NCBI GenBank assembly: GCA_043734785.1
Contig: JAYTEX010000279.1
Coordinates: 1 to 53,735, forward strand
Origin: Pseudomonadota bacterium
GTDB lineage: Bacteria; Pseudomonadota; Gammaproteobacteria; Ga0077536
Direction: 5' to 3'
DNA: 53,735 nucleotides
The stretch's first letter is position 1. Each line of letters begins with the position of its first letter. The translations under genes and the position numbers were made by a program. Positions 15,508-34,804 of this stretch are shown here, piece by piece. The notes beneath the pieces are model-generated. The model was not told the DNA's origin and made no database searches. It saw only the letters and a program-made list of their open reading frames with translations.

Positions 15508-16077
15508 TCACGCGACGTCGGTGCCGGCATAGAGCTCGGCAAGACGCAAGGGCACGCCCGGTATGCCGGCGGCGATGAGCAAGGCATGATCATCGGTCAG
15601 CTCCGTTGTCGTCCACCGTCCGTCGTCGCCACGCGTGTGGGACTCGACGCGACGCTCGTCCTGGCTGACAATCCAGTAGCTGCGCAGGCTAGGTAATTTG
15701 CGATAGGCGGCGAGCTTTTCACGACGGTCCGTGCCCGCCGTAGAAGGACTCAACACCTCGACAACCAAGGTCGCATCTGAGGCCACATTACGCTCGCCGG
15801 CCAGGCCAACGCCACAGAGAACAAAAACGTCAGGGTAGTAAACGCTATCGACCGTTTGGACATGCAGCTTCATGTCATTAATAAACGCCTGGCAGGGCGT
15901 GCTTGCTGTACGTTGGAGCAAAGCGCTGTAAATGTTGCCGGAAATTCGGTTGTGCCGCATCGAGCCGCCCACCATCGCATGCACATAACCGCCGACGTAC
16001 TCATGCCGGATTTCGCTGGTGTCCTCGAACGCCAGGTAATCAATCAAGTCAACAGGGCTTTGCAGCGCGTGGGCCAT
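15508..16077 (-). CDS. Uma2 (DUF820) family PD-(D/E)xK-like endonuclease, copy 1
   Basis: MAHALQSPVDLIDYLAFEDTSEIRHEYVGGYVHAMVGGSMRHN...PDVFVLC...LVVEVLSPSTAGTDRREKLAAYRKL. This is the classic Uma2 layout. Confidence 0.8.
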   Translation of the reverse strand: MAHALQSPVDLIDYLAFEDTSEIRHEYVGGYVHAMVGGSMRHNRISGNIYSALLQRTASTPCQAFINDMKLHVQTVDSVYYPDVFVLCGVGLAGERNVASDATLVVEVLSPSTAGTDRREKLAAYRKLPSLRSYWIVSQDERRVESHTRGDDGRWTTTELTDDHALLIAAGIPGVPLRLAELYAGTDVA

Positions 16078-16355
16078 GATCCATCTTAGGTCACCGCGCC
16101 TGCCACGATCAACCTGGTCGCAGGCGTGCTTCCTTCTCGTGCACGTCGATGGGGATCCCAATCCACTTGATTCTGTGGAAAGGCGCGATTTGACCACAGA
16201 CGTCTCGATAGTCGATTAGCCCTCGCTATCGACTTTTCCTCGTCTGCTGGGTCACACAAACGATGTCTGCCGCCGCCGGCGAATGACAGGCCGTGCATTC
16301 CATAGGCTATCGCACGGCCGCTTCCGACCTCGGCATCAGAGGAATGCGCTCGCCA

Positions 16356-17504: not shown

Positions 17505-17940
17505 GTCAGCGAACTCCTTCGGGGTTGCGATGCTTAGTTTCGATGATCGATTGTGACTGTAACGCGTGGGTGGGAAGCATGCTAGAACGGGATCGCAAGG
17601 GGATAATCCGAAGGAGGATAATCCAGGACACCCTCCTCTCCAGTCGCTTCGCCTGTTCTGGTCATCATGCCGTCGATAATTACCCCGCCGGAGAGTGCCG
17701 TCGCCTCCATCAGTGTGCGACGCCCACTTGCTGTGTTCACCCATTTCTATCTCCTGCCGAACATGCAACCTTCGCTGAACGCACAATAAATCTGTCGCCT
17801 TTCTGCTTCTGCTTTCGGTGGGTCGTCGTATACTCTGCTGAGATCGCGGCATATTGTCGACGATGGGCAACTGGCGGCGTGGTGGGTAACTTAATGGTTA
17901 TGGGACGGTGGACGTTCTTCAATTTTTCCTGAGGTGCGGC

Positions 17941-18453
17941 ATGCACGCTTTTACTTTTGAAAAACTGAATGTGCCAGCGTTGGTCGCGCGCTGGCGAGAA
18001 ATTATCCAGGACGAGAACGTCCCGGATTTTTGCGAACTCGATGAATTCGGAGAAATCGAAGTGAATCCTCCGCCGTCATTCAAACACCAGCAGTGGGTTG
18101 CCGCAATCGGACGACGGATGGAAACGCAGCTTGGCGGGGAGTCCGGGAGTTACGCCTTAGCGACCGCAATCGGTGTGCGTTTCTCCGATGTCTGCTGGGC
18201 GAAAAATTTTAGCGAGCTTGCGCGCGATGGCGGATCTGATCCGCTGACAAAAATGCCGCCGATCTGCGTTGAGGTTTTATCGCCCGGCAACCGGCGCAAG
18301 AAAATAGAATCCACCGTTGCCGCATACCTGACGGCTGGCGTCGAGGAGGTGGTGCTCGTTGAACTCGACGGACGCGTGCGGTGGTTCGATCGAAGCGGCG
18401 AACGCCCCAACAGCCAATTTGACCTAACACTCGATTTTGCAGACCTGAAGTAA
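17941..18453 (+). CDS. Uma2 (DUF820) family endonuclease, copy 2 (divergent)
   Basis: MHAFTFEKL...EIEVNPPPSFKHQQ...PPICVEVLSPGNRRKKIESTVAAYLTAGVEEVVLV. The EVLSPGN...K core is conserved. Confidence 0.75.
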   Translation: MHAFTFEKLNVPALVARWREIIQDENVPDFCELDEFGEIEVNPPPSFKHQQWVAAIGRRMETQLGGESGSYALATAIGVRFSDVCWAKNFSELARDGGSDPLTKMPPICVEVLSPGNRRKKIESTVAAYLTAGVEEVVLVELDGRVRWFDRSGERPNSQFDLTLDFADLK

Positions 18454-19122: not shown

Positions 19123-20111
19123 CATAAACACCATTCTTCCAAGCCCTTAGGGGTTGTGACACGTTGTTCTCCTTTGCGAGGAGCACGTGATGTCGAATCA
19201 TTCATCGTTGACTGAACGCCAGCAATTTTGGTTGGAGCACTCGCAAAGTCGCGGCTGCGTCAACGCGGGATATGGCCAGCGACGGGGCCGCATTTCGTGC
19301 GTGTGGAGGCTGTGGTCAGTACCGCAGCGGCGGTGCCGGGCCTTTATCGGGTGTCGTTGCCGACAAGGGTTACCTGCAAACCGATGGCTATGCCGGTTAT
19401 CACGCGGTGGTTGCCGCCAATGGCCTCACCCCGCTCTATTGCTTCGCGCATGCCCGACGCTATTTTACCGACGCCCTCAAGGCGCTCGGCTTGAACCCGA
19501 ACAAGCTACCACTGATACCGCCCGACAAAGCCCGCCGGCCGCTGAAGGCGCTCAACTTCATCCGCCATCTGTACGTCATCGAGCAGCGTATCCGAACGTC
19601 AACGCCGCAAGAGCACCTTGCCGCACGTCAGGCCGAGAGTGCGCCCGTCTTGAAAGCGCTTCGCGCCTGGCTCGATCAACTTCTACCGAAAGTCGTGCCC
19701 AGCAGTCCGCTCGGCAAAGCCCTCGGTTACCTTGACCGTCACTGGCAGGGCCTCGGGGTGTACTGCGCGGATGGCCGGATCGAAATCGACAACAAACGCT
19801 GCGAGAACGCCATCCGCCCCTTCGTCACCGGGCACAAAAACTGGTTGTTCAGTGACACCGTCCAAGGTGCGCAGGCCAGCGCCAACCTTTATTCTCTGAT
19901 TGAAACGACTAAGGCCAACGGGCTCGAACCCTATGCCTATCTGCGCCGCGTGTTCACCTTACTGCCGTAGGCCACCACCGTCGCTGACATCGAGGCCCTG
20001 CTGCCCTGGGCAAAACCCGCCAGCGCCTGATTCCTCTGTTGATCAACGTATCGCCCTGGCCAGCAACCGTATTCGGGAATTACACGGTTACGCGGTTCGT
20101 GGACCGCTTAC
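19123..20111 (+). mobile_element. Internally deleted IS66-family element (about 0.99 kb)
   Basis: The terminal inverted repeats are gtaagcgatccataaacac (left) and the reverse complement gtaagcggtccacgaaccg (right). Inside lie a decayed TnpA-like start (MSNHSSLTERQQFWLEH) and only the C-terminal part of the TnpC transposase. Confidence 0.8.
19272..19970 (+). pseudogene. IS66 transposase (TnpC) C-terminal fragment with premature stop
   Basis: GYLQTDGYAGY...IDNKRCENAIRPFVTGHKNWLFSDT...LIETTKANGLEPYAYLRRVFTLLP*. The in-frame continuation ATTVADIEALLPWAKP after the TAG shows a nonsense mutation. The N-terminal two-thirds is missing. Confidence 0.8.
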
Positions 20112-20148
20112 GATTAATTTTTAATCCCTCCGTCCTGTTTTATCAAAG

Positions 20149-21528
20149 TCAGTGACCGTCCCAGTTCCTCTCAAAGGTCATTGCTCGCACAGACAACAGC
20201 AATGCGAACCACGCCGGCACCCACGCAAGGATGTTTGACAACTCAACCCATTCCAGCGGGATTCCTAAATGCAGCTGAAAAATTCTCCGTCCGAAGCCCA
20301 GACAAAGCAGGAGTGAAAGCGAGGCGAGGATTACGACTGAACGTGACGAGCTTTGTTCAAAGAGAAGGTAAACAACTGGGAATAACAGCAGCACCAAGTA
20401 ATGCTGCCAAACAAGCGGGGATAGCGCCAGCGTAACGATAAGTCCGAAGCTGACCGCAAGGTATAAACGATGACCGCCGTTCGCGTCGGCCGACAATGTC
20501 GGGAACCAGACGCTACGAGGGAGTAATAGTCCAATCGTGCACAAGAGACCACCCCCGATTGCGGCAGCGGCAAGAAGTATTGTCACGTTCAGTTCTTTTG
20601 CCAAGTAACTCGTGGTCGAAAAATTTCCAGCACTCATCGGGTACGAAATTCGTAGAGCATTTGATGTCAATTCACGATACCAATCCAACCACACACCCCA
20701 AGTTCCGAAATACAGGCATGGCAATAGAGCCAACAGTACGGTCGAGAGTGCAACGCCGACCGCCCACGTCACCCGCCCGACGGGAGTCATCTTTCCAAAC
20801 AACACCCAGATCAATAGCAGCGCGCTAAGCGTTAGCGTTGGTTTGAACAACAGGATCACAGCAAGCATCAGGACGATACCGACTTGCGAAAAACGATGTA
20901 GATGGCGCAATTTGATGAGCAGAACGGTGACGCAAGTCATTGCTAATAATTGCAGTGCATTCGTATTGCCAACATTTACGTCTAGCAAAAGTGGGTCGTA
21001 AGCGAGGCATAGCAGAGCTGCGAATATCAGTGGGAAAAACCAGTGGCCGGAGCGGGTCATGCCGATTATCGAGACGGCGATCCAAGCACTAGCAATCTGA
21101 ACAAGTCGATATCTTGTTAAGAAGGTTAAATAATCCGCCGGTGCGAGAGCATGCATGTAGTAGAGGAGAGGTGTCGCGGTTAAATCGAAGGGTAGTGACA
21201 CGTTCGCAATGCGCGCAAGAACCGTTTGCTCGGTTACTGCGAGCAATTGTTTGAGCGCGGCTGCATATTCATCGGGGGCTAGATAGGGGCTTCCTAACTG
21301 ACCGGGGTAAGCCTTATGCACCGCACCAATGGCCCAGAACCTGAACAAGTCAATTCCAGGTGAAGAAAGCGCGTGTGGCCATAAGGAGATAGAGGAAATC
21401 GCACAGACAGCGATGACCAAAAGCAGACCGAACGGCGCGAGGCATCGCATATTTAAGCCATACCCATCTTCCGGTTGAACTCTACGACGCCAGGAAATTC
21501 TAGTGTCAGCCCAAAGCCACTTTAACAA
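20149..21528 (-). CDS. Polytopic membrane protein, GT-C-fold/DUF2029 (GT87)-like glycosyltransferase candidate
   Basis: 459-aa ORF (alternative ATG at 21450) with more than 10 hydrophobic segments. GC content is visibly lower than in the flanks. The family assignment is tentative (YDPLLLDVNVGNTNALQLL loop). Confidence 0.55.
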   Translation of the reverse strand: MLKWLWADTRISWRRRVQPEDGYGLNMRCLAPFGLLLVIAVCAISSISLWPHALSSPGIDLFRFWAIGAVHKAYPGQLGSPYLAPDEYAAALKQLLAVTEQTVLARIANVSLPFDLTATPLLYYMHALAPADYLTFLTRYRLVQIASAWIAVSIIGMTRSGHWFFPLIFAALLCLAYDPLLLDVNVGNTNALQLLAMTCVTVLLIKLRHLHRFSQVGIVLMLAVILLFKPTLTLSALLLIWVLFGKMTPVGRVTWAVGVALSTVLLALLPCLYFGTWGVWLDWYRELTSNALRISYPMSAGNFSTTSYLAKELNVTILLAAAAIGGGLLCTIGLLLPRSVWFPTLSADANGGHRLYLAVSFGLIVTLALSPLVWQHYLVLLLFPVVYLLFEQSSSRSVVILASLSLLLCLGFGRRIFQLHLGIPLEWVELSNILAWVPAWFALLLSVRAMTFERNWDGH

Positions 21529-21730
21529 AGGTATAAGACACGCGCCTAGAGCAAAAGCGCCGCGGCTTCCGCCGCATGACGAGAATCAAGTGCGCTTTAC
21601 AACACTCGCTGGCAATCCGTGTTTCCCCGGATTGAAATACGCGACGACATATGAGTCAGGCGATAGCTGCCGCTTGCGGCGGAAGGCGCTGCGCTTTTCC
21701 GCCCTATAGGGCTATTTGGCCTTGAGACGG

Positions 21731-21814
21731 TGCCGGGCGGGGGACTCGAACCCTCACATGGTTGCCGATACCCGTTTTTGAGTCTGGCGCGTCTACCCAT
21801 TCCGCCATCCCGGG
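21731..21814 (-). tRNA. tRNA-Leu(CAA)-like class-II tRNA, possibly a pseudogene
   Basis: Reverse complement: CCCGGGATGGCGGAATGGGTAGACGCGCCAGACTCAAAAACGGGTATCGGCAACCATGTGAGGGTTCGAGTCCCCCGCCCGGCA. It has a Leu-type D-arm, a CUCAAAA anticodon loop and a GGTTCGAGTCC T-arm. Hand folding gives 5 stem mismatches and CCA is not encoded. Confidence 0.55.
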
Positions 21815-21974
21815 ACGGGACGCCACATAGAGAAAGCCGCCCGCCTTTATGCGCAGAAAGACTCTGGCGGTCGCGCGGAATTGCTCATTGAGCGGCTAAT
21901 CTCGTCAACCCGGGCGCTGGCGCCTATTCGGGCCAGTAAATCGCCCAAGCCCGGGGCGCGGTTGCACCGTGGCA

Positions 21975-22143
21975 GGATGTTGGGGTTCGCGGCACTCACC
22001 CCAACCTACCTTGAACACGCATGCCCGCATGCGCTTTGGCGGCGCTAGAAGATTGGGTAGGTTGGGATGAGCTTGCGAAGCCCAACCGTGAGTAGACCCG
22101 CTCGCGCGGCTACTCGGATTCGCGACGATGCGGTCACTCGGCG
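21975..22143. repeat. REP-like mosaic repeat, modules A then B
   Basis: Same two modules as 18634-18800, in the same orientation but permuted order, at about 90% identity by eye. Confidence 0.75.
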
Positions 22144-24796: not shown

Positions 24797-25717
24797 ATGC
24801 TGGAACTGACGCGACTGCGCACACTCGAGATACGCGAATCCTCCGCCCCAGGGCGCCCGGCCCATCTGAGTGCGGCGAGTGGTTTGGTTCGACTTGGGCC
24901 ACGCTTCTATGTCGTCGCCGATGACGAGTATCACTTGGGCATATTCCCGGTCGCGCAGGGCGAACCAGGCGAACTCCTGAGGCTGTTCCCGGGTACGCTG
25001 CCTCACGGACCGCGTGCGCGAAAAAAACACAAGCCGGATCTCGAAGCGCTGGTGCGATTACCGGCCTTCAGCGGGTATCCGCACGGCGCCTTGTTCGCGC
25101 TGGGTTCCGGCTCAAAAGCGAATCGTCAAACCGGCGTATTGCTAGGGTTTAACGCGCAATTCAAGGTGGAAGGTGTGGCGCGGCTGATTGATCTCGCCCC
25201 ATTGTATGACGGGCTTGCCGCCGAATTCGATGATCTCAACATCGAGGGCGCCGCGATTGTCGATGACGCTTTGATCCTGCTCCAGCGGGGCAACCTGGGC
25301 GGCAGCGTGAATTCCTGGATTGAATTTGATCTGCGCGCGGTACTTGCCGCGATGGTGCGGGGTGATGCGCTAGACGAAGCACGGCCTCGTCAGATTCGTC
25401 GCTATGACCTGGGCGAGTGCCACGGGGTGCCGCTGGGTTTCACGGATGCGGCGAGTCTGCCCGGGGGCGAAGTGATCTTCACAGCGGTCGCCGAAAATAC
25501 CGAGGACAGTTATCGCGATGGCGCGTGTGTGGGCGCCGCGATCGGTCTCATTGACGCGACGGGCATCTTGGTGACCTTGGAACCGCTCGCGCTCGCCCAT
25601 AAACTGGAAGGAATAATCGCTTGGCCCGCACTCGACGGCGTGCATTTTCTGGTCGTGACGGATGCCGACGATGCGAACGTTCCGGCGCAGTTACTGTCTG
25701 GAGGCCTTGCGCGGTGA
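24797..25717 (+). CDS. Conserved hypothetical protein (possibly beta-propeller-like)
   Basis: 306-aa ORF with an ATG start and good coding appearance. No family was recognised with confidence. Confidence 0.6.
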   Translation: MLELTRLRTLEIRESSAPGRPAHLSAASGLVRLGPRFYVVADDEYHLGIFPVAQGEPGELLRLFPGTLPHGPRARKKHKPDLEALVRLPAFSGYPHGALFALGSGSKANRQTGVLLGFNAQFKVEGVARLIDLAPLYDGLAAEFDDLNIEGAAIVDDALILLQRGNLGGSVNSWIEFDLRAVLAAMVRGDALDEARPRQIRRYDLGECHGVPLGFTDAASLPGGEVIFTAVAENTEDSYRDGACVGAAIGLIDATGILVTLEPLALAHKLEGIIAWPALDGVHFLVVTDADDANVPAQLLSGGLAR

Positions 25718-26391: not shown

Positions 26392-26537
26392 CGTGGGTCG
26401 CAAGTTGAGGTCGGGGCGATGATACCAGTCCTCAAGGTTCCATCATCAAGCCGGTTCAACTCCACCATAAAGCCAGTAGAATGAGCCATCGACCCGCCGC
26501 CGGCGGGCCGCAAGCACCAGTGATAGGAGCGAACATC

Positions 26538-28364
26538 ATGGGTTGGCAGCGAAACATTCTGCGTGTGAATCTAACGACTGGCATTTGTAAGCACGAACCG
26601 CTGAATATGACGTGGGCGCAGCAGTACCTCGGTTCGCGCGGACTGGCGACGAAGTACCTGTTGGAAGAGATCGATCCCCAAGTCGATCCGCTGTCGCCTG
26701 ACAACAAGCTGATCATCGCAACGGGACCGCTGACCGGGACGATAGCCTCGACCGGTGGACGTTGGACGGCCGTGACGAAAGGTGCGCTGACGGGCGCCAT
26801 CGCGAGTTCGAACTCTGGCGGCCAGTTCGGCGGCGAGCTCAAGATGGCGGGCTACGACATGATCATCTTGGAAGGTCGTGCGCCGAAGCCCGTGTATTTG
26901 TACATTCAGGACGATGATGCCCAGTTGTTGTCCGCAGATGGTCTGTGGGGTAAATCGGTGTGGGAGGTCGAGCCTGCGATCAAACACACGCATCAAGACC
27001 CGCTGATTCGAATTGCGTCGATCGGACAGGCCGGTGAATACGGCAACCGCTACGCCTGTATCGTCAACGATCTACATCGCGCGGCCGGGCGTTCCGGTGT
27101 CGGCACGGTGATGGGTTCGAAGCAGCTGAAAGCCATCGCAGTCCGCGGCACCAAGGGCGTTAAACCCCATAATCCGACAAAATTCATGGCCGCCGTGAAG
27201 GTGGCGACCGCGGCACTGGCCAAGAACAAGGGCCGCAAAGGCATGACCTCGGACGGGACCATCGCCATGATGGACGTGACCGGCGCCTTCGGCGCGCTGC
27301 CCACTCGCAACAACCAGCAAGTGCAGTTCGAAGGTGCGGGCAAGATGAACGCCACGAGCATGAAGGCGCCGAATGAGAATGGTCATGTCAACCTGATTCA
27401 GAACGGTGCCTGTTTCTCCTGCACGATCGGTTGTGGGCGCATTTCGCACATCGATCCCCTCCATTTCTCGGTCAAGGATAAGCCGCAATACCAAAAGGCG
27501 TCGGGTGGCCTCGAGTACGAAACGGCTTATGCCTTGGGCTCTGCAGTCGGTGTCGACGATATGGACGCGGCGACCTACGCGGGATTTCTCTGCAATGAAT
27601 ACGGCATGGATCCGATTTCTTTTGGCGGTACGCTGGCCGCCGCGATGGAACTCTACCAGGTCGGAGCGATTACCAAGGAGCATACCGGTGGGGTGGATCT
27701 CGTGTGGGGAAATGCCGAAGCGCTGTGCCTGATGGCAGAGCTGGCGGGTAAGGGTGAGGGGTTCGGGCGCGATCTGGGACTCGGCTCCAAACGATTGACC
27801 GAAAAATATGGCCGCCCGGAATTATCGATGGCAGTCAAAGGCCAGGAATTCGCGGCCTATGATGGCCGCGCGATGCAGGGTATGGGCTTGGGCTATGCGA
27901 CCAGCAATCGAGGCGCGTGCCACTTGCGCGCCAATCCCTATGCCAGTGATTTCACCACTACAGAACTCAAGGAAAAACCTGAAGTGGTGCGCACCTCGCA
28001 GGATTTGGTGGCGGTGATCGACGCGACCGGTCTGTGTCTGTTTACGCTGCATTCTGGCGCGATTCCAGAGCACTATGCCGCGCAAATCGACGGCGCCTGT
28101 GAAGGCGGCTGGGACGTTGCGCGTCTGGTGGAAACCGGCGAGCGGATCTGGAACCTCGAGCGCCAGTTCAATCTGGCGGCAGGCTTAACCATTAAGGACG
28201 ACACGTTGCCTAGGCGGATCCTCGAGGAGCCTGCGCCGAGCGGCGTGGCCAAAGGTCAGGTTAGCGGTCTTAAGACCATGCTGCCGGAGTACTACCAGCA
28301 GCGCGGTTGGTCTGCAGAGGGCCGACCGACCGCGGAAACCCTGGCGCGGTTGGGCATGGGCTGA
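26538..28364 (+). CDS. aor: Aldehyde:ferredoxin oxidoreductase (tungsto-/molybdopterin AOR family)
   Basis: MGWQRNILRVNLTTG...YLGSRGLATKYL...IIATGPLTG, the [4Fe-4S] motif CFSCTIGC, and EYETAYALG. About 608 aa. Confidence 0.9.
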   Translation: MGWQRNILRVNLTTGICKHEPLNMTWAQQYLGSRGLATKYLLEEIDPQVDPLSPDNKLIIATGPLTGTIASTGGRWTAVTKGALTGAIASSNSGGQFGGELKMAGYDMIILEGRAPKPVYLYIQDDDAQLLSADGLWGKSVWEVEPAIKHTHQDPLIRIASIGQAGEYGNRYACIVNDLHRAAGRSGVGTVMGSKQLKAIAVRGTKGVKPHNPTKFMAAVKVATAALAKNKGRKGMTSDGTIAMMDVTGAFGALPTRNNQQVQFEGAGKMNATSMKAPNENGHVNLIQNGACFSCTIGCGRISHIDPLHFSVKDKPQYQKASGGLEYETAYALGSAVGVDDMDAATYAGFLCNEYGMDPISFGGTLAAAMELYQVGAITKEHTGGVDLVWGNAEALCLMAELAGKGEGFGRDLGLGSKRLTEKYGRPELSMAVKGQEFAAYDGRAMQGMGLGYATSNRGACHLRANPYASDFTTTELKEKPEVVRTSQDLVAVIDATGLCLFTLHSGAIPEHYAAQIDGACEGGWDVARLVETGERIWNLERQFNLAAGLTIKDDTLPRRILEEPAPSGVAKGQVSGLKTMLPEYYQQRGWSAEGRPTAETLARLGMG

Positions 28365-28389
28365 CGCCCACTCAAAGGCACGATTGCCC

Positions 28390-28644
28390 ATGCGCGTGAA
28401 TATCAAACTCCTCGGCTGGATGCGTGAGTTCCTCGCCGAGGGTATCGCTCATTTCAATGATCAGGATTTCGAGCTGCCCATCGATTTTACCCTCGCGCAG
28501 CTCGTCGCGAAATTCGGCTTTGCAAGCGAGACGCCGTTCATTGTGATGCAGAACGGGAATCGTGTGCTCGATGAGGCATTCGCGGTAACTCTCCTGCGCG
28601 AGGGAGATCAGATTTTATTTGTGCCTCCCCTGAAAGGCGGGTGA
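28390..28644 (+). CDS. MoaD/ThiS-family small sulfur-carrier-like protein
   Basis: About 84 aa ending ...FVPPLKGG* (C-terminal Gly-Gly). It starts 26 nt after aor. Confidence 0.75.
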   Translation: MRVNIKLLGWMREFLAEGIAHFNDQDFELPIDFTLAQLVAKFGFASETPFIVMQNGNRVLDEAFAVTLLREGDQILFVPPLKGG

Positions 28645-28656
28645 GCCGCCGCGTGT

Positions 28657-30597
28657 TCAGGGCAATCCGGTCGCCGAATTGTCACCAATGGGTTGGGCGA
28701 ATGCATCGCGCGTCAAGACGTCGATATTGTCGCCCGTCAGGCTTTTCAAAAACTCGAGGAGATCATTGACTTCGATCGCGCTCAGGTGCAGCGGTTTCAG
28801 GCGCGCATCCAAGCCTTCATTCTGGATGCCACCGGCGTTGTAGAACGCAAGAACGTCGTTAAGCGTCGGTAACGACCCGTCGTGCATATAGGGGGCACTC
28901 AGTGCCACATTGCGCAGGATCGGTGTTTTATATTTCCAGCGGTCGGCGGGCTTCAGTGTCACTTCATAACGGCCTAGATCGTTGGCTGGCGTTTCACTCG
29001 ATGCAGCTGGCGCACCGGCGTCGATCGCGAGCGTTGTGCCCGGCCCTACCATGATTGCGATGGGCATGATTGCAGCGGGCAAAGTTTTCCCCATCGAGCG
29101 TGCATAGCCGATCCCCGTGTTGTGCAGGTTGTGATCGGTGAATAGGGCATGGGTGTCGCCAACCCGGTGACAGCCGCTGCACCCGGCTTTGCCGGTGAAT
29201 AGATCGAAGCCGCGCTTTACCTCGGCAGACACCGCGCTTTCTTCACCCCCAAAATGCCAGCGATCAAATGCGCTGTTGCCGGATACGAGACCCCGTTGAT
29301 AAGCCGCCAGCGCGGCGCCCAGGGTTTCTTGCGTGAGGCCGCGCGGAAATATGCTGTCAAATGCCTCGGCATAGTCCTCGAGATCCCGCAGTTTCTCGAG
29401 GACATAGCCGATCGATGGGTTGGCCATTTCGTTGAAGGCCAGCAGCGGTGACCACACTTGCTGCTCTAAGCGAACTTCACGGCTGTCGTGAAACAGACTG
29501 GTCTGAAACACAACGTTATACAGCGACGGCGCATTACGTTTGACGGTGCGGCCCTCCATGCCCACTGGTGTCGCAACCTCGTGATGGGTGAACCCTTGGT
29601 CGGGCACATGGCAGCTGGCGCAACTCAACGTGTTGTTGTGCGAGAGTCGACGCTCGAAAAAGAGCCGGCGCCCCAGATTGACCTGGGCGAGGTTCGGCAG
29701 TTCGGAGGTCGACAGCGGCAGCGGCGGAAGGCCGAGGGGCAGCGCATGAAGCTGTGCGGCGAGATCGAGGTGGGCACCGCAGCGCGTCTCCAGCGCGCGC
29801 GAGTGCGTGCGATAGGTTTTCTGGTCGTAACCTTGCTTATCGTCGCCGGCCCCCAGGAGAGGTGGAAGGCACGCTGAGGCGCTTGCAACCGGCGCTGCGC
29901 GGGTCAGGGTAGTAAGGTCGGCGATGACGGTGTCTGCGTGCAGAAAGGCGGTGCTGTATTCATTTCGGATATTCCGCTTCTCGTCGATCAGAAATACCCG
30001 TAGCTGGTGCGAGAAGGCGCTACCCTCTCGATCCTTTAGCAGCGATTGGCCGTAGGCGTCGAGGATCGGCGCCAGGTCGCGCTCGGTGTCAGTGGTCACG
30101 AAGCGCCAGTCCACGGGGCCATCACGAAAACTGGCGGCGTAGGCGGCCAATCTGGCCGGGGTATCGCGAATCGGATCGAAACTCAGGCTTATCAGCCGGA
30201 CTTTGTGGCGCAGTGCGGGGTGTTCGGCCACACGCCTGCCGATCTGTCGCATGACGTACGACGCCAGCGGACAACCGTTCGGGTCTGCACAGTGCGTGAA
30301 GATGAAGCCCAACACGACCAAGCGGTCGTTGAACAAGGCATGCAGCGAAGTCGCCTGTCCGGTGTCTTCACGGACTGCGCCATCGCCTGCGGCGCGGACT
30401 ATCGGCAGCGTGTAACTACCGGGATCTGGACTCGGATACGGCAGTTCGGCGTAACCCGGGGCAGCTTTCACCTCTCCCACAGGATGGTGTGGATGATCGC
30501 CGGCCGCATTCGACGCCGCGAAGACGGTTCCCAGTAAAAGGCAGGCCAGCCGAAAAAAATCCCTCCGACATCTTTGCGATGCGTGGTCCACACGCAT
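28657..30597 (-). CDS. Fusion protein: SCO1/SenC thioredoxin-fold domain plus di-haem MauG/cytochrome-c-peroxidase domain
   Basis: It has a signal peptide. The N-domain reads VVLGFIFTHCADPNGCP. The C-domain has two CXXCH motifs (SCASCHVP, GCSGCHRV) and the CCP/MauG block PSLYNV...FHD. It starts 9 nt after the mtoX-like stop. Confidence 0.85.
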   Translation of the reverse strand: MRVDHASQRCRRDFFRLACLLLGTVFAASNAAGDHPHHPVGEVKAAPGYAELPYPSPDPGSYTLPIVRAAGDGAVREDTGQATSLHALFNDRLVVLGFIFTHCADPNGCPLASYVMRQIGRRVAEHPALRHKVRLISLSFDPIRDTPARLAAYAASFRDGPVDWRFVTTDTERDLAPILDAYGQSLLKDREGSAFSHQLRVFLIDEKRNIRNEYSTAFLHADTVIADLTTLTRAAPVASASACLPPLLGAGDDKQGYDQKTYRTHSRALETRCGAHLDLAAQLHALPLGLPPLPLSTSELPNLAQVNLGRRLFFERRLSHNNTLSCASCHVPDQGFTHHEVATPVGMEGRTVKRNAPSLYNVVFQTSLFHDSREVRLEQQVWSPLLAFNEMANPSIGYVLEKLRDLEDYAEAFDSIFPRGLTQETLGAALAAYQRGLVSGNSAFDRWHFGGEESAVSAEVKRGFDLFTGKAGCSGCHRVGDTHALFTDHNLHNTGIGYARSMGKTLPAAIMPIAIMVGPGTTLAIDAGAPAASSETPANDLGRYEVTLKPADRWKYKTPILRNVALSAPYMHDGSLPTLNDVLAFYNAGGIQNEGLDARLKPLHLSAIEVNDLLEFLKSLTGDNIDVLTRDAFAQPIGDNSATGLP

Positions 30598-30606
30598 CGC
30601 AGGCTG

Positions 30607-31968
30607 CTACTTGGTCGCCGCGAGCGCCGGCTCCGTGGCGGGCGGCACTTGCGCGAACAGCGCATAGGCGCCGGCCGTCATCTGATGTGGTCTGCCCAGT
30701 TTCTCGGCCACGAAATTCACACTGAAGGTAGGCTTAAGTGCCTTGCCATCCCAGTCGTAGGCTTTCAGGTACTGGACATCCCCTTCTGGCCCTTGCTTCT
30801 TGTCCCAGCTGGCGAGCAGCGAAGAGGTGAAGTAAACCCGCTTGCCATCCCAGCTCTGCGAGACCATGTTGACCTGCTCGCCGATTCGCAATCGGTAGAT
30901 TTCCGCAGGCGCATGGGGATTCGAAATATCAAACAGGCGGGCCATGCCGTCGTTCCAGGTGTTTACCCATAGGCGCGTATCGTCGGCGGATATCGAGATA
31001 TCGACCGGTAGCGGGATCTTGCTGGCATCCCCGATGTCGGCGACTGCTTTGGTTTGCCATTCGCCGGTGGCATCTCGGAAAATCAGATAGATTTTCGAGG
31101 TTAACGCGGTAGTGGTGAAGCAGTAGTCGTGATCAGCACCCCATGCGCAGCGAATTTCGAGTGGTGCGCCGGGTACATCGAACACCTTCTTCGGCTTACG
31201 CGTGTGCAGATCCCACAACACCACCGAGTTGCCGAAGCGCTGCATGGCCTGCGGATCTCCCATCATCTTGCCGAGGTCCATCATGTAGTTATTCCAACCG
31301 GTAAACGACGAGGTAAGCAGCACATTCAAGCGCGGCAGGGCACGCACATCGTAGCCGTAACCGTCCGCGATACTGCCGGTCTTGATCGCACCCTGCAGGT
31401 TATCGTCAGTCGGCATCCAGTGCGTGCTGATGTGCTCACCGTCGTTGGTGTATTCAGCCATGCCAGTGCGGCCGCCATGATCTTGATTGTTGGAAAGGCC
31501 GGTAATCAGCATTCTGCCGGGCAGCGCGTAGAATGTGTGCGGACCGACAATTCCCTTGGTGTCAGCCACGAAGTTGGTCAGAGTCTTGACCAGTTTGGGT
31601 TGCGCCGGATCGGTGTGCACGTCGAACACGAATATCGCGCTGGTATCCAGGCCCCCGGCCCACAGGAAGCGGCGATCATCGGTGAATCCAGAGTGGTGAG
31701 CCTCGTTGCGGCCACCCACTGACAAGGCGTGGATGACCTTGCCGTAACGCTTTGCGCCCGGTCTTACGTCTATCGTCACCAGCTTATCCTGCTCGTCGCC
31801 GACACCCTGCACGCCGAGGGTCCACACATACATGAAGTCTTCCTGCCCGACAATTTTCGCCATATACGGCGAAAAGCAGGTTTCATCGGCCGCGACGGGC
31901 CCGCACGCGATGAGCGCCGCGGTGGCCGCACCTACAATCACGCGCTGACGTAAGGACGGTATTCTCAT
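30607..31968 (-). CDS. mtoX: SBP56 (selenium-binding protein) family, methanethiol-oxidase-like, periplasmic
   Basis: The ATG at 31966-31968 has a GGAGG SD. The signal peptide is MRIPSLRQRVIVGAATAALIACGPVAA. The HHSG, PLEIR, DISISADD.RLW and SSLLASWDKK blocks parallel SELENBP1. Confidence 0.85.
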   Translation of the reverse strand: MRIPSLRQRVIVGAATAALIACGPVAADETCFSPYMAKIVGQEDFMYVWTLGVQGVGDEQDKLVTIDVRPGAKRYGKVIHALSVGGRNEAHHSGFTDDRRFLWAGGLDTSAIFVFDVHTDPAQPKLVKTLTNFVADTKGIVGPHTFYALPGRMLITGLSNNQDHGGRTGMAEYTNDGEHISTHWMPTDDNLQGAIKTGSIADGYGYDVRALPRLNVLLTSSFTGWNNYMMDLGKMMGDPQAMQRFGNSVVLWDLHTRKPKKVFDVPGAPLEIRCAWGADHDYCFTTTALTSKIYLIFRDATGEWQTKAVADIGDASKIPLPVDISISADDTRLWVNTWNDGMARLFDISNPHAPAEIYRLRIGEQVNMVSQSWDGKRVYFTSSLLASWDKKQGPEGDVQYLKAYDWDGKALKPTFSVNFVAEKLGRPHQMTAGAYALFAQVPPATEPALAATK

Positions 31969-32087
31969 GGGAGCCTCCAGTGGCATGGATGGGCAGTCAG
32001 GACTGCAGACTATAAACCACCGCACACCGGATCCGTAGCAGCCTTAGAGCCGCCTACCGGCGGTGCGCGGTGTGTTGCTGCGATGCG

Positions 32088-34547
32088 TCAGTCGAACGGG
32101 CGCCACATCAGCAGCAGTTTCGGCATTAACGTCAGGGCCGCCAGGATGGCGATGGTCATCGCAACCGTGGTCAGCAAGCCGAACAAGATGCTCGGGATGA
32201 AATTTGACAGCACGAGGATCGAGAAACCAACGCACACGACCAGCGTGGTGTAGAAGCCGGCTTTCGCGATGCTGGAATGACACAGATACATCGCTTTGAC
32301 ACCGTCACGAACTTCGGCGTGAACGAGTCGATACCGATAAAGATAGTGGATGCAGTCTTCGACGGCGATGCCCATGGTGAGCGCCGCGATCATGATGGTC
32401 ATCATATCGAGCGGGATCCCGGCCCAGCCCATGAAGCCCAGCACGCACACCGCCGCAATGACATTGGGGAGTACGCCGATCAGCGCGGCGCGCACATTGC
32501 GGAACAGCAGGCAGAGCGTCAGCACAATGCCCAGCATGGCGCCGCCGATCGACTGGATCTGCGAGGAAAAAAGGCTTTGCAGCATGTTGTTGTAAAGCAC
32601 CAGCAATCCCGCGACTTGGAATTCTTCCGGCTTAAGTCCTAGGTCGTGCTGCAAGCCGTTTTGAATCTGCTCGAGCAAAGCTTGACGATGCAGGTTGGGT
32701 GTGGAATCGAGTATCCGCAGCGATATTCTCGCCTCGTCATTCTCAATGGAGATATAGGGAGAGAGCATCTCGTGTTTCAGGTTGCCGGGCAGCCGCTTGT
32801 AGATGACGTTCAGTTCGAACGGGTCAAACTCGCGACCTTTATTCAGGTCTTCGGCCACGCGCACCAGTGAGGCGAGCGACATGACTTTGCCGACGCCAGG
32901 AATGGTTTCGAGATAGTCATGAACCCGTTTGATGCGCTCGACCTTTTCCGGCGTGAACCAGTACTCGGATTTCGGTGTGGGTTCGTCCTCGCCGTAGAGC
33001 TCACTGAGGTCGTCCTCGGCGGGGGCTGGCGAGGCTACTTCGGACGACGGAAACTTCAGGATGATTTCGAGCGGTGTGGTGCCGCCCAGGGTTTCATCGA
33101 CTTTTTTCAAGCCCTGATAGATTTCGGTGTTTTTCTTGAAGTAGCTGATGAAGCTGTTTTCGACTTCGAGCCTGGACATGCCAATGCCGCCGATCACCGC
33201 AATCAACAGGGAGACGACAATCACCACCGTGCCGTGACGGTCCGTGAAGCGTGCCAGATGTTCCGTGAAGGCCAGACCCTGGGTGTCCGCAGGCGGCGCG
33301 GGACGCTTAACCATCAGCACCATCATGGCGGGGACGAGCGTAAAGACCACGAAATAGACGACCAGCAGACTCACGGTCATCATCCAACCGAAGTCGATAA
33401 TCGGCTTAATGTTGCTGGTGGCAAGCGACGCAAAGCCGATGACCGAGGTGATCGAGGTGTACAGGCATGGCCGCGACATGTCGTGGACCACGCCGCGCAC
33501 CAATTCGAACTGTGTCCATCCGGGATGCTCGCTGAGTAGCTCCTGATAACGCACGATCAGATGGATGTTGATCGAGATGGTCAGGATCAGCGTGAGGGCG
33601 ATGAAGTTCGACGAGATGACCGTAAGATGCCAGCCGACGTGCCCCAGCAGACCAAGAATAAGCGTGGTGCAAAAGCCGCAGGTAATGAGCGGCGTCAGCA
33701 CCCAGCGTAGCTCGCGAAAAATATACCCCAGCATGCCGATCGCGAGCACCAGCGCGCCGATGCCGAAGATCACGATATCATCGCGCACGAAGGTAATCAT
33801 GTCGTCCGCAATCATCGAGATTCCGCCGAGGTGAACTTCGGCGCGTGCCTCGAAGGTGGAGAGCAGGTGGCGCAGCGATTCCAAGGTCGTGTGGTTCTCG
33901 ATATCCACCTCGTCCTTCTTCTGCTGGTAGAGGGGCTCGATCACCGCAAGCCGCTCGGTTTGCGCCGCATCTAATCCGGTGGTGCCGCGTTTGTAGAGCA
34001 GATCTGCACGCTCAAATTGAAGGGTGCGGAACTTGAAGTTCTCGTGTAACACGACGCGGATCGCGGTCGTACTCGCGTCCGGGCTCAACACCACATTACG
34101 GTACAGGGGGCTGGTGGTGAGTTCCTCGCGCGCCTTCTTCAGATCGACCTCTTTGGACTCCAGGGTGCGGTAGCGGGTGGCAATCTCAGAGAGCGTGCCA
34201 GGCATGTTCTTAACCAGTGGCACGTCCAGCACGGTCATGACGGAGGCGACCTGCGGGATATCCTTCAGGGCTTGGCGAAGGTCGCGAATCAGGCCCATGC
34301 CCTGTGGGTTGAACAGGCCCTCTTTGGGGCTTACGGTGACAAACAGGAAATCCCGCGCGTTATAGCGCAACGCGAGTTCACGGAATTCCCTCAAATCGGG
34401 ATCATTTTCCAGCAGCAGCGAATCAGCCGAGGCATCCAGCCGGAAATCCGCAAGCCCTAAGGCGAACAAGGCCAGCGTCAGCGTCAGTATCGCGAGCGTG
34501 AGGCGTGGTTGCGCGAGCACCAAGCGGTCGTAGAAGTCAGCAAACAT
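32088..34547 (-). CDS. RND-superfamily exporter (MMPL/HpnN-like, COG1033 type)
   Basis: 819 aa from the ATG at 34545-34547 (MFADFYDRLVLAQPRLTLAIL...). It has a 2 x (1+5) TM layout with two large loops. Confidence 0.85.
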   Translation of the reverse strand: MFADFYDRLVLAQPRLTLAILTLTLALFALGLADFRLDASADSLLLENDPDLREFRELALRYNARDFLFVTVSPKEGLFNPQGMGLIRDLRQALKDIPQVASVMTVLDVPLVKNMPGTLSEIATRYRTLESKEVDLKKAREELTTSPLYRNVVLSPDASTTAIRVVLHENFKFRTLQFERADLLYKRGTTGLDAAQTERLAVIEPLYQQKKDEVDIENHTTLESLRHLLSTFEARAEVHLGGISMIADDMITFVRDDIVIFGIGALVLAIGMLGYIFRELRWVLTPLITCGFCTTLILGLLGHVGWHLTVISSNFIALTLILTISINIHLIVRYQELLSEHPGWTQFELVRGVVHDMSRPCLYTSITSVIGFASLATSNIKPIIDFGWMMTVSLLVVYFVVFTLVPAMMVLMVKRPAPPADTQGLAFTEHLARFTDRHGTVVIVVSLLIAVIGGIGMSRLEVENSFISYFKKNTEIYQGLKKVDETLGGTTPLEIILKFPSSEVASPAPAEDDLSELYGEDEPTPKSEYWFTPEKVERIKRVHDYLETIPGVGKVMSLASLVRVAEDLNKGREFDPFELNVIYKRLPGNLKHEMLSPYISIENDEARISLRILDSTPNLHRQALLEQIQNGLQHDLGLKPEEFQVAGLLVLYNNMLQSLFSSQIQSIGGAMLGIVLTLCLLFRNVRAALIGVLPNVIAAVCVLGFMGWAGIPLDMMTIMIAALTMGIAVEDCIHYLYRYRLVHAEVRDGVKAMYLCHSSIAKAGFYTTLVVCVGFSILVLSNFIPSILFGLLTTVAMTIAILAALTLMPKLLLMWRPFD

Positions 34548-34804
34548 AGGATTGCATGTGAGTGATTGTGCGTCGTGGACGCGTTTTTCCGGGATCTCGC
34601 CAGTGAGGCGGGGGCTCTGTTGACCGACGCCTGCGGACGGTGGCGCATGATAGCTGGAAGGCGGCCACCTCACTATCCAGATTGTGAAAATTTAAAGAAC
34701 GGGTCAGCGCTTGGAGATGCGGCGTATTACCGGGCAGTGCCCTATGCCATGGCTGCAGGCTCGGGCAGACTTCGCGGACTATCACTCGCCTGCCGCCCGG
34801 TGTC

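Follow-up and report, generated by a model that had tools for sequence, protein, structure and literature searches.

What does a gene of the SBP56 (selenium-binding protein) family do when it is followed, nine nucleotides (nt) further on, by a gene that joins a SCO1/SenC copper-chaperone fold to a MauG-type diheme domain? This question is raised by contig JAYTEX010000279.1 (assembly GCA_043734785.1) of an uncultured gammaproteobacterium, whose 53,735 nt form the stretch of DNA analyzed here, referred to below as the window. The original prediction, read from the sequence alone, was that the pair is a mtoX-type methanethiol oxidase module. Our analysis supports that view. The region is very likely the mtoX operon of this bacterium, coding for MtoX, a predicted periplasmic Cu-dependent methanethiol oxidase (MTO), and for a dedicated, exported SCO-MauG helper protein.

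The mtoX gene and its product

Both open reading frames (ORFs) are intact on the minus strand, where the original prediction had placed them. The mtoX gene (30607 to 31968) starts with the ATG at 31968, stops with the TAG at 30609-30607, and encodes a precursor of 453 amino acids (aa). A Shine-Dalgarno sequence, GGAGG, lies at 31974 to 31978 on the minus strand with a 5-nt spacer to the ATG. The ORF list also offered a longer form beginning with a GTG at 32025. We dismissed this start because MtoX homologues, of which there are thousands, are 450–457 aa long and span the 453-aa form in full (100%), and because the Shine-Dalgarno sequence precedes the ATG at 31968. The fusion gene (28657 to 30597) follows with an ATG at 30597, ends at 28657, and encodes 646 aa. 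The spacer between the mtoX stop codon and this ATG, CAGCCTGCG (30598 to 30606, minus strand), is the predicted 9 nt long and contains no recognizable Shine-Dalgarno sequence. The short gap suggests that the two genes form one operon and are co-transcribed. They may also be translationally linked, as had been proposed, to judge by the 9-nt gap; no Shine-Dalgarno sequence precedes the fusion ATG, however, and the idea of a conserved coupling was dropped, as relatives differ widely in spacing, some with overlapping genes and others with a gap above 200 nt. Scans for promoters and terminators gave no signal above shuffled expectation, including in the interval between mtoX and the MMPL gene upstream of it.

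The mtoX product matches the Pfam family SBP56 (E = 1.2e-45). It also scores 733.1 bits against the NCBIfam methanethiol oxidase equivalog model NF052453 (MthilOxMtoX), which has a cutoff of 650. Of two controls, the genetically validated MtoX of Ruegeria pomeroyi DSS-3 reached 759 bits, and a SELENBP1-like member of SBP56 that is encoded on a Phaeobacter plasmid reached 151 bits. The model therefore separates the MtoX clade from the SELENBP1-like clade. Sequence identities fall into the same two groups. A BLASTP alignment of the window protein with R. pomeroyi MtoX, 414 aa long (592 bits, E = 0), shows 66.2% identity, and identity to the Phaeobacter SELENBP1-like paralogue is 26.5%. A search of a plasmid collection found MtoX-type proteins at 60–67% identity (R. 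pomeroyi mtoX at 66.7% by tblastn) and other SBP56 proteins at 25–28%. Eyice et al. regard as MtoX orthologues those proteins that share at least 52% full-length identity with a characterized MtoX at E ≤ 1e-151 (PMC5739008). At 66.2% identity to R. pomeroyi MtoX and E = 0, the window protein lies above that threshold. Its assignment to the MtoX clade rests on the equivalog hidden Markov model with its controls and on the bimodal identities. The four sequence blocks that the original prediction had aligned by eye with SELENBP1 are all present, namely HHSG (residue 91), PLEIR (269), DISISADD (323), and SLLASWDKK (383), and they align with their counterparts in the archaeal SBP56 structure from S. 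tokodaii (2ECE). When we searched for a solved structure of human SELENBP1 or of a bacterial MtoX, 2ECE was the sole SBP56 structure retrieved.

The protein begins with a predicted signal peptide, as had been proposed, spanning residues 1–27 (MRIPSLRQRVIVGAATAALIACGPVAA; 31888 to 31968, minus strand). The leader ends in GPVAA and is followed by DETCFSPYM. The DETC motif (residues 28–31) is invariant in 82 of 82 relatives, each time after a hydrophobic leader. Purified MTO of Hyphomicrobium sp. VS has the sequenced mature N-terminus DETXNSPF (PMC5739008). Therefore, by homology, cleavage most likely takes place before Asp28. A lipobox-like sequence in the leader (LIAC) was considered as a lipoprotein signal and dismissed, as its Cys22 is kept in just 6% of relatives.

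Next, we compared functional residues across an 82-sequence alignment of the MtoX clade. Residues C31, H91, H92, H144, H428, W225, and W388 of the window protein are each invariant. Cys31, within the motif TCxSPYM, aligns with Cys28 of R. pomeroyi MTO (RpMTO), where the C28S mutant is inactive and the N-terminal Cys forms an adduct or mixed disulfide with the substrate (PMC10936201). The proposed Cu-ligand histidines H91/H92/H144/H428 correspond to H88/H89/H141/H424 of R. pomeroyi and to H89/H90/H140/H412 of Hyphomicrobium VS, the latter match relying on published numbering with R. pomeroyi as an intermediate. The proposed cofactor tryptophans W225 and W388 are equivalent to R. pomeroyi W223 and W386. 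Position 147, in H144-T-F-Y147, is Tyr in the window and Phe in R. pomeroyi. The MtoX clade is set off from SELENBP1-like proteins by its signal peptide, by the Cys of DETC, and by HxxY/F in place of HxxH; in SELENBP1, both H137 and H140 are required for Cu binding (PMC10362175). Taken together, the membership tests and these residues strongly support the assignment of the SBP56 protein as a MtoX-type periplasmic methanethiol oxidase, orthologous to characterized MtoX.

The gene could also be read as coding for an ordinary protein of the selenium-binding or SELENBP1 type that has nothing in particular to do with methanethiol, as Pfam names the family simply SBP56 and many database homologues are called "selenium-binding protein." The membership tests effectively refute this reading, which we regard as exceedingly improbable. 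The window protein passes the MtoX equivalog cutoff, whereas the SELENBP1-like control falls 500 bits short of it, and no Se was detected in the Hyphomicrobium enzyme (PMC5739008). Nor does the window protein, which belongs with the "cluster 2" MTOs, show the profile of cluster-1 SBP56 proteins (cytosolic, with HxxH and high similarity to SELENBP1), the type to which human SELENBP1 and RdMTO of Roseobacter denitrificans belong. The cluster-1 type has in common with it the Pfam family, the fold, the HH motif, and the first His of HxxH, and characterized members also carry out Cu-dependent methanethiol oxidation (PMC13603461, PMC10362175). However, it differs in having HxxH, no signal peptide, no DETC Cys, no SCO or MauG neighbors, and about 26% identity, a figure that was measured on the Phaeobacter SELENBP1-like protein with its cluster-1 membership assumed. 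On Phaeobacter inhibens plasmid pP30_b (3989-7586), the SELENBP1-like SBP56 gene is preceded by an IclR regulator and followed by 2Fe-2S, CoA-binding, rhodanese, and MBL-fold (persulfide-dioxygenase-like) genes, with no SCO or MauG neighbors.

Linkage of mtoX with SCO and MauG genes

We then looked at how closely SCO and MauG genes accompany mtoX elsewhere. The sample comprised 80 loci from species-representative genomes, drawn from uncultured or little-studied Gammaproteobacteria and allies, with MtoX 69–88% identical to the window protein. In every locus whose contig continues for 200 bp or more past mtoX, a gene with a SCO domain lies directly 3′ of it (74 of 74 loci). The contigs of the other six stop 1–149 bp past mtoX; three of these contain the start of a SCO match and three have no SCO match. 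A MauG-type gene is present in 72 of the 80 loci, either fused to SCO as a single ORF (46) or divergent and upstream of mtoX (26), the latter in, for example, Luminiphilus, Halieaceae, and Woeseiaceae. With 46 of 80 loci fused, the fused SCO-MauG protein is the majority architecture in the sampled part of the tree. Four lake metagenome-assembled genomes (MAGs) with close homologues, L001, L018, L019, and L043, have records entitled "Klebsiella pneumoniae" or "uncultured Klebsiella"; the gene content and relatives of these MAGs point to uncultured environmental Gammaproteobacteria, and the records look mislabeled.

The same three functions are linked in characterized organisms, in more than one arrangement. 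The plasmid locus of R. pomeroyi DSS-3, which we fetched separately, has the gene order mtoX (SPOA0269), SCO (SPOA0270), MauG-like (SPOA0271), as in the window. Besides the 66% identity of MtoX, the two loci share the signal peptide with DETC, the essential Cys, His, and Trp residues, the SCO motif C-x-D-x-N-G-C-P, and the MauG-type Tyr, Gln, Pro, and Glu. In R. pomeroyi, however, SCO and the downstream MauG-like gene are separate, with a 4-nt overlap. The upstream neighbor there is an IclR regulator and the downstream one a glutathione-dependent formaldehyde dehydrogenase; in the window these places are taken by an MMPL transporter and a convergent ThiS-like/AOR gene pair, respectively. The original prediction had pointed to the gene association of Hyphomicrobium sp. 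VS. That linkage of mtoX with SCO1/senC and mauG holds, and VS MtoX (KY242492) shares with the window the DETC mature N-terminus and the four proposed Cu-ligand histidines. However, SCO1/senC and mauG are separate genes in VS, and the fused form is the one described for Methylophaga thiooxydans (Eyice et al. 2017, PMC5739008). In M. thiooxydans DMS010, mto clusters 1 and 2 are each built, as in the window, around mtoX and a second gene whose exported product combines the SCO1 and MauG domains, a likeness drawn from published descriptions (PMC5739008, PMC6548844). Both of these fusion genes are induced along with mtoX on dimethyl sulfide (DMS), and Sec export is predicted for their products (Kröber and Schäfer 2019, PMC6548844). 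Unlike the window, the Methylophaga clusters carry on with tlpA-like, pdo, sqrB, and sulP genes (PMC6548844). All three elements, the MtoX enzyme, the cluster around its gene, and the helper in its fused form, had thus been reported between 2017 and 2019.

Annotation has kept pace for the enzyme. Generic pipelines had been expected to call the two genes only "selenium-binding protein" and "cytochrome c peroxidase" and so to hide their function. This is not the case for MtoX, which is named methanethiol oxidase by the curated NCBI model NF052453, by RefSeq for R. pomeroyi mtoX, and by JGI for many homologues. The expectation does apply to the partner, labeled "SCO family protein" or "cytochrome c peroxidase."

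The fusion protein and its predicted role in MtoX maturation

The fusion protein consists of a signal peptide or anchor, an HPHH motif, a SCO domain, a linker, and a MauG-type diheme domain. The SCO1/SenC domain, which has a thioredoxin fold, spans residues 87–209 (29971 to 30339, minus strand) and matches Pfam SCO1-SenC (PF02630) at E = 1.7e-13, with 51.1 bits against a gathering score of 22.8. Sco proteins in the PDB match it at E = 1e-7 to 1e-5, and we aligned it with 1XZO, 1ON4, and 4HDE. His197, in FSHQLRVFLID, aligns with the Cu-ligand His of Bacillus subtilis Sco (1XZO) and with 4HDE, and is kept in relatives. The CxxxC metal motif, however, is not present in its usual form. In its place is C103-ADPNG-C109 (30271-30291, minus strand; CADPNGCP), which in the HMMER alignment is longer than the motif of B. 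subtilis Sco by an insertion of 2 residues. This C-x-D-x-x-G-C-P pattern is found in 78 of 78 MtoX-linked SCO domains, including the separate SCO protein of R. pomeroyi. No NCBIfam SCO model was matched by the domain. Just after the predicted signal peptide lies HPHH (residues 35–38; 30484-30495, minus strand). A motif of the form H-x(1-3)-H occurs at this place in 47 of 78 relatives, many of them gammaproteobacterial, and an APGY motif follows in 63 of 78; the R. pomeroyi SCO protein has no His-rich motif after its signal peptide. The HPHH-type motif may be an extra metal-handling site. The sequence CRRDFFRL of the fusion protein was considered as a Tat signal and dismissed, as the RR is not kept in relatives and c-type cytochromes are normally exported unfolded via Sec. 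Our best guess is that the SCO domain acts as a copper chaperone.

The MauG-type diheme cytochrome c domain occupies residues 304–636 (28690 to 29688, minus strand). Pfam recognizes CCP_MauG at residues 304–450 (E = 3.8e-46) together with a RoxA-like cytochrome c module. Both predicted heme motifs, CASCH (residues 326–330; 29608-29622, minus strand) and CSGCH (residues 473–477; 29167-29181, minus strand), are present and are invariant in 67 of 67 relatives. The domain scores 202.7–205.1 bits against TIGR03791, the model for the MauG that makes tryptophan tryptophylquinone (TTQ), and 220.6–223 bits against TIGR04039, the MbnH-family model. These scores are below the respective cutoffs of 443.85 and 362.85. 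The separate MauG-like protein of R. pomeroyi also falls below both, with nearly equal scores. The MtoX-linked diheme proteins therefore form a subfamily of their own. The top PDB match is 6E1C (E = 7e-40), titled just "Di-heme enzyme," which we take to be MbnH. Classical cytochrome c peroxidases (CCPs) come next, followed by MauG.

We aligned authentic, plasmid-encoded MauG of Paracoccus denitrificans with the diheme domains of the 67 MtoX-linked relatives. Tyr294 of MauG, the axial ligand of the six-coordinate heme, corresponds to Tyr586 in the window (28840-28842, minus strand), and the position is Tyr in 66 of 67. The peroxide-pocket residues Gln103, Pro107, and Glu113 are matched by Q380, P384, and E390 without exception (67 of 67). 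Alignments to 1EB7, 2C1U, and 1NML place the heme ligand Met275 of classical CCPs at Tyr586 and their distal His71 at Met347, a position that is His in none of the 67 relatives. We also considered the Met of the window's PYMHDG as a CCP-type, peroxidase-like heme ligand. This was dismissed, as the CCPs have PYFHSG, their Met275 is at Tyr586, and MauG itself has PYMHNG. The domain thus shares with MauG the two CxxCH hemes, the axial Tyr, the distal Gln/Pro/Glu, and PYMH(D/N)G. Unlike MauG, it has His370 (29488-29490, minus strand) in place of the inter-heme Trp93, a Trp that CCPs have as well, with His in 49 and Trp in 7 of the 67 relatives. Trp199, at the interface of MauG with its methylamine dehydrogenase precursor (preMADH), is Lys470 in the window, and this position varies among relatives, as would be expected with a different substrate. 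The domain also differs from MauG and MbnH in being fused to SCO and in its presumed substrate, an SBP56 β-propeller instead of methylamine dehydrogenase (MADH) or MbnP. Because the Tyr heme ligand and the Gln/Pro/Glu pocket are kept and the Met275 and His71 of CCPs are absent, the domain is thus predicted to be a MauG-type protein-oxidizing enzyme with an altered inter-heme relay and not a peroxidase that scavenges H2O2.

A peroxidase has nonetheless to be considered. The diheme domain might reduce the periplasmic H2O2 that MtoX gives off, using the SCO domain as its redox partner. The Pfam family and the CCPs among the top PDB matches would agree with this, H2O2 has been reported as a product of SELENBP1 and RdMTO (PMC13603461), and RpMTO works without its partner (PMC10936201). 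Further, the inter-heme Trp that MauG needs to form bis-Fe(IV) is His in most of the relatives. Against a peroxidase stand the residues just described, with the CCP ligand Met275 replaced by Tyr as in MauG, no His at the distal His71 position, and an invariant MauG pocket; moreover, H2O2 release by a MtoX-clade enzyme is disputed (PMC10936201). We consider this explanation quite improbable.

Two further alternatives concern what the partner would do to MtoX. It could treat MtoX as MbnH treats MbnP, oxidizing a single Trp to kynurenine or another oxidized Trp that serves as a Cu ligand, with SCO loading Cu and no TTQ being formed. The closest solved homologue is the presumed MbnH structure, TIGR04039 gives 223 bits against 205 for the TTQ-MauG model (both below cutoff), and fusion to a copper-chaperone fold would suit the building of a copper site. 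MbnH is known to make a Cu-binding kynurenine in its partner (PMC11951088). However, Eyice et al. favored TTQ, on the grounds that two Trp residues are conserved and that the mass agrees (PMC5739008). As W225 and W388 are both invariant, a two-Trp cofactor fits at least equally well, and we consider single-Trp oxidation unlikely. Pfam recognized no MbnP-like partner among the window ORFs (nearly all those of at least about 90 aa), a provisional absence, with the existence of an MbnP model in Pfam or NCBIfam unconfirmed. The SCO domain, for its part, could be a TlpA-like thiol:disulfide oxidoreductase that holds the catalytic Cys31 of MtoX, or the Cys residues of apo-cytochrome, in the reduced state, instead of a copper chaperone. 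The C-x5-C spacing in every MtoX-linked SCO domain, the lack of any NCBIfam SCO match, and the mixed disulfide that MtoX makes with its substrate through an indispensable Cys near the N-terminus (PMC10936201) all point in this direction. On the other side, the distal Cu-site His197 is conserved and aligned, the additional H-x-H motif in 47 of 78 suggests metal handling, and MTO requires Cu (PMC5739008). Here too we judge the alternative to be unlikely, though not negligible.

We therefore return to the mtoX operon with a dedicated SCO-MauG helper. In the mechanism we propose, the MtoX precursor would be exported by Sec and cleaved before Asp28. The SCO-type domain, with Cys103-x5-Cys109 and His197, would deliver copper to MtoX or keep the catalytic Cys31 reduced. 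The MauG-type domain, with its His/Tyr-ligated heme and Gln/Pro/Glu peroxide pocket, would oxidize one or both of W225 and W388 to a protein-derived cofactor. The mature periplasmic enzyme would then use Cu to convert CH3SH and O2 to formaldehyde and reduced or sulfane sulfur species, with H2O2 formation disputed. The original prediction gave the products as HCHO, H2S, and H2O2, which is contested. The R. pomeroyi enzyme was reported to yield sulfane sulfur and water without H2O2 (PMC10936201), whereas H2S, H2O2, and HCHO were re-asserted as products for a cluster-1 enzyme (PMC13603461). Experimental work on orthologues agrees with other parts of the mechanism. Hyphomicrobium VS MTO is a Cu-requiring periplasmic homotetramer, and knockout of R. 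pomeroyi mtoX abolished methanethiol oxidation (PMC5739008). Copper delivery, Trp oxidation, and the physiological role in the host organism are steps that we infer only.

Several observations weigh against this mechanism. Recombinant R. pomeroyi MTO produced in E. coli without SCO or MauG is active (PMC10936201), so these helpers are not strictly needed in vitro. No MTO has so far been shown to contain TTQ or another cofactor made from Trp, and MTO is missing from a 2025 review that covers protein-derived cofactors (PMC11951088). The SCO metal motif is non-canonical, and the inter-heme Trp of MauG is His. Methanethiol oxidase activity has been assayed for orthologues only and is predicted for the window protein. 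Finally, no genes for DMS or dimethylsulfoniopropionate (DMSP), sulfide, persulfide, or formaldehyde oxidation were found among the Pfam-scanned window ORFs, so the window does not reveal the source and fate of methanethiol in the host.

These departures from known systems allow one more proposal, which we put forward tentatively and hold to be doubtful. The MtoX-linked SCO-MauG proteins could be a distinct family of bifunctional maturases that build the MtoX site in a way unlike MauG/TTQ or classical Sco. For example, one polypeptide might both oxidize a single Trp to a copper ligand, as MbnH does, and insert the Cu. The proposal is based on the C-x5-C SCO site, the frequent N-terminal H-x-H, and the His/Tyr heme with His for the inter-heme Trp, and it would apply to the whole family, not to the window specifically.

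Genomic neighborhood and significance

The window is ordinary gammaproteobacterial chromosome, with ilvIH, proS, hda, purM, surE, pcm-nlpD-rpoS, adk, mrcB, and rnhA-dnaQ. Unlike the R. pomeroyi and Methylophaga clusters, it has no sox, sqr, pdo, DMS/DMSP, or glutathione-formaldehyde genes that we could find. An MMPL/RND (HAE3/HpnN-like) transporter gene lies 119 nt upstream of mtoX on the same strand (32088 to 34673, minus strand); it matches Pfam MMPL and is below all NCBIfam cutoffs. Eyice et al. 2017 do not mention such a gene (PMC5739008). We found it upstream of mtoX in 27 of 65 assessable loci, including one lineage in which the MMPL protein is just 28% identical. A divergent gene of the IMPase family beyond it is equally syntenic. 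It is uncertain whether the MMPL gene is a further operon member or mere synteny.

On the other side, two plus-strand genes converge on the fusion gene. One codes for a tungsten/molybdenum aldehyde:ferredoxin oxidoreductase (AOR)-family protein (26481-28364) and the other for a small ThiS/MoaD-like protein (28384-28644), with 12 nt between the stop codons of the latter and the fusion gene. Identity of the AOR is 81–89% across the 8 closest loci, against 71% in two that are less closely related. We considered a functional tie between AOR and MtoX as a formaldehyde producer. It is unsupported, as only the closest relatives have the two side by side, with insertions in between in several of them. 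The adjacency looks like lineage synteny.

Farther away, the window contains an IS66-family transposase fragment (19272-19970, plus strand) and two Uma2-family putative endonuclease genes (15508-16197, minus strand; 17908-18453, plus strand), with an Fe-alcohol dehydrogenase gene between the latter two. The IS66 fragment adjoins a stretch of lower GC content (0.536 versus about 0.60) at about 20000-22000, in which a 459-aa ORF (20149-21528) has no Pfam match. This region may be a small insertion island. Separately, a 306-aa protein (24797-25717, plus strand) has high-scoring matches to both DUF6929 and DUF6910.

What the locus means can be stated at two levels. The work that remains of research value is family-wide only. 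It concerns the C-x5-C SCO site, the MauG-type domain with His for the inter-heme Trp, and the maturation chemistry, and so touches the question of what SCO and MauG-type helpers do to MtoX, which belongs to the family as a whole. For the organism, an uncultured gammaproteobacterium most closely related to MAGs from lakes, groundwater, and the sea, the pair points to a genetic capacity for periplasmic methanethiol oxidation, and recognizing it is useful for the annotation of volatile organosulfur cycling in metagenomes.

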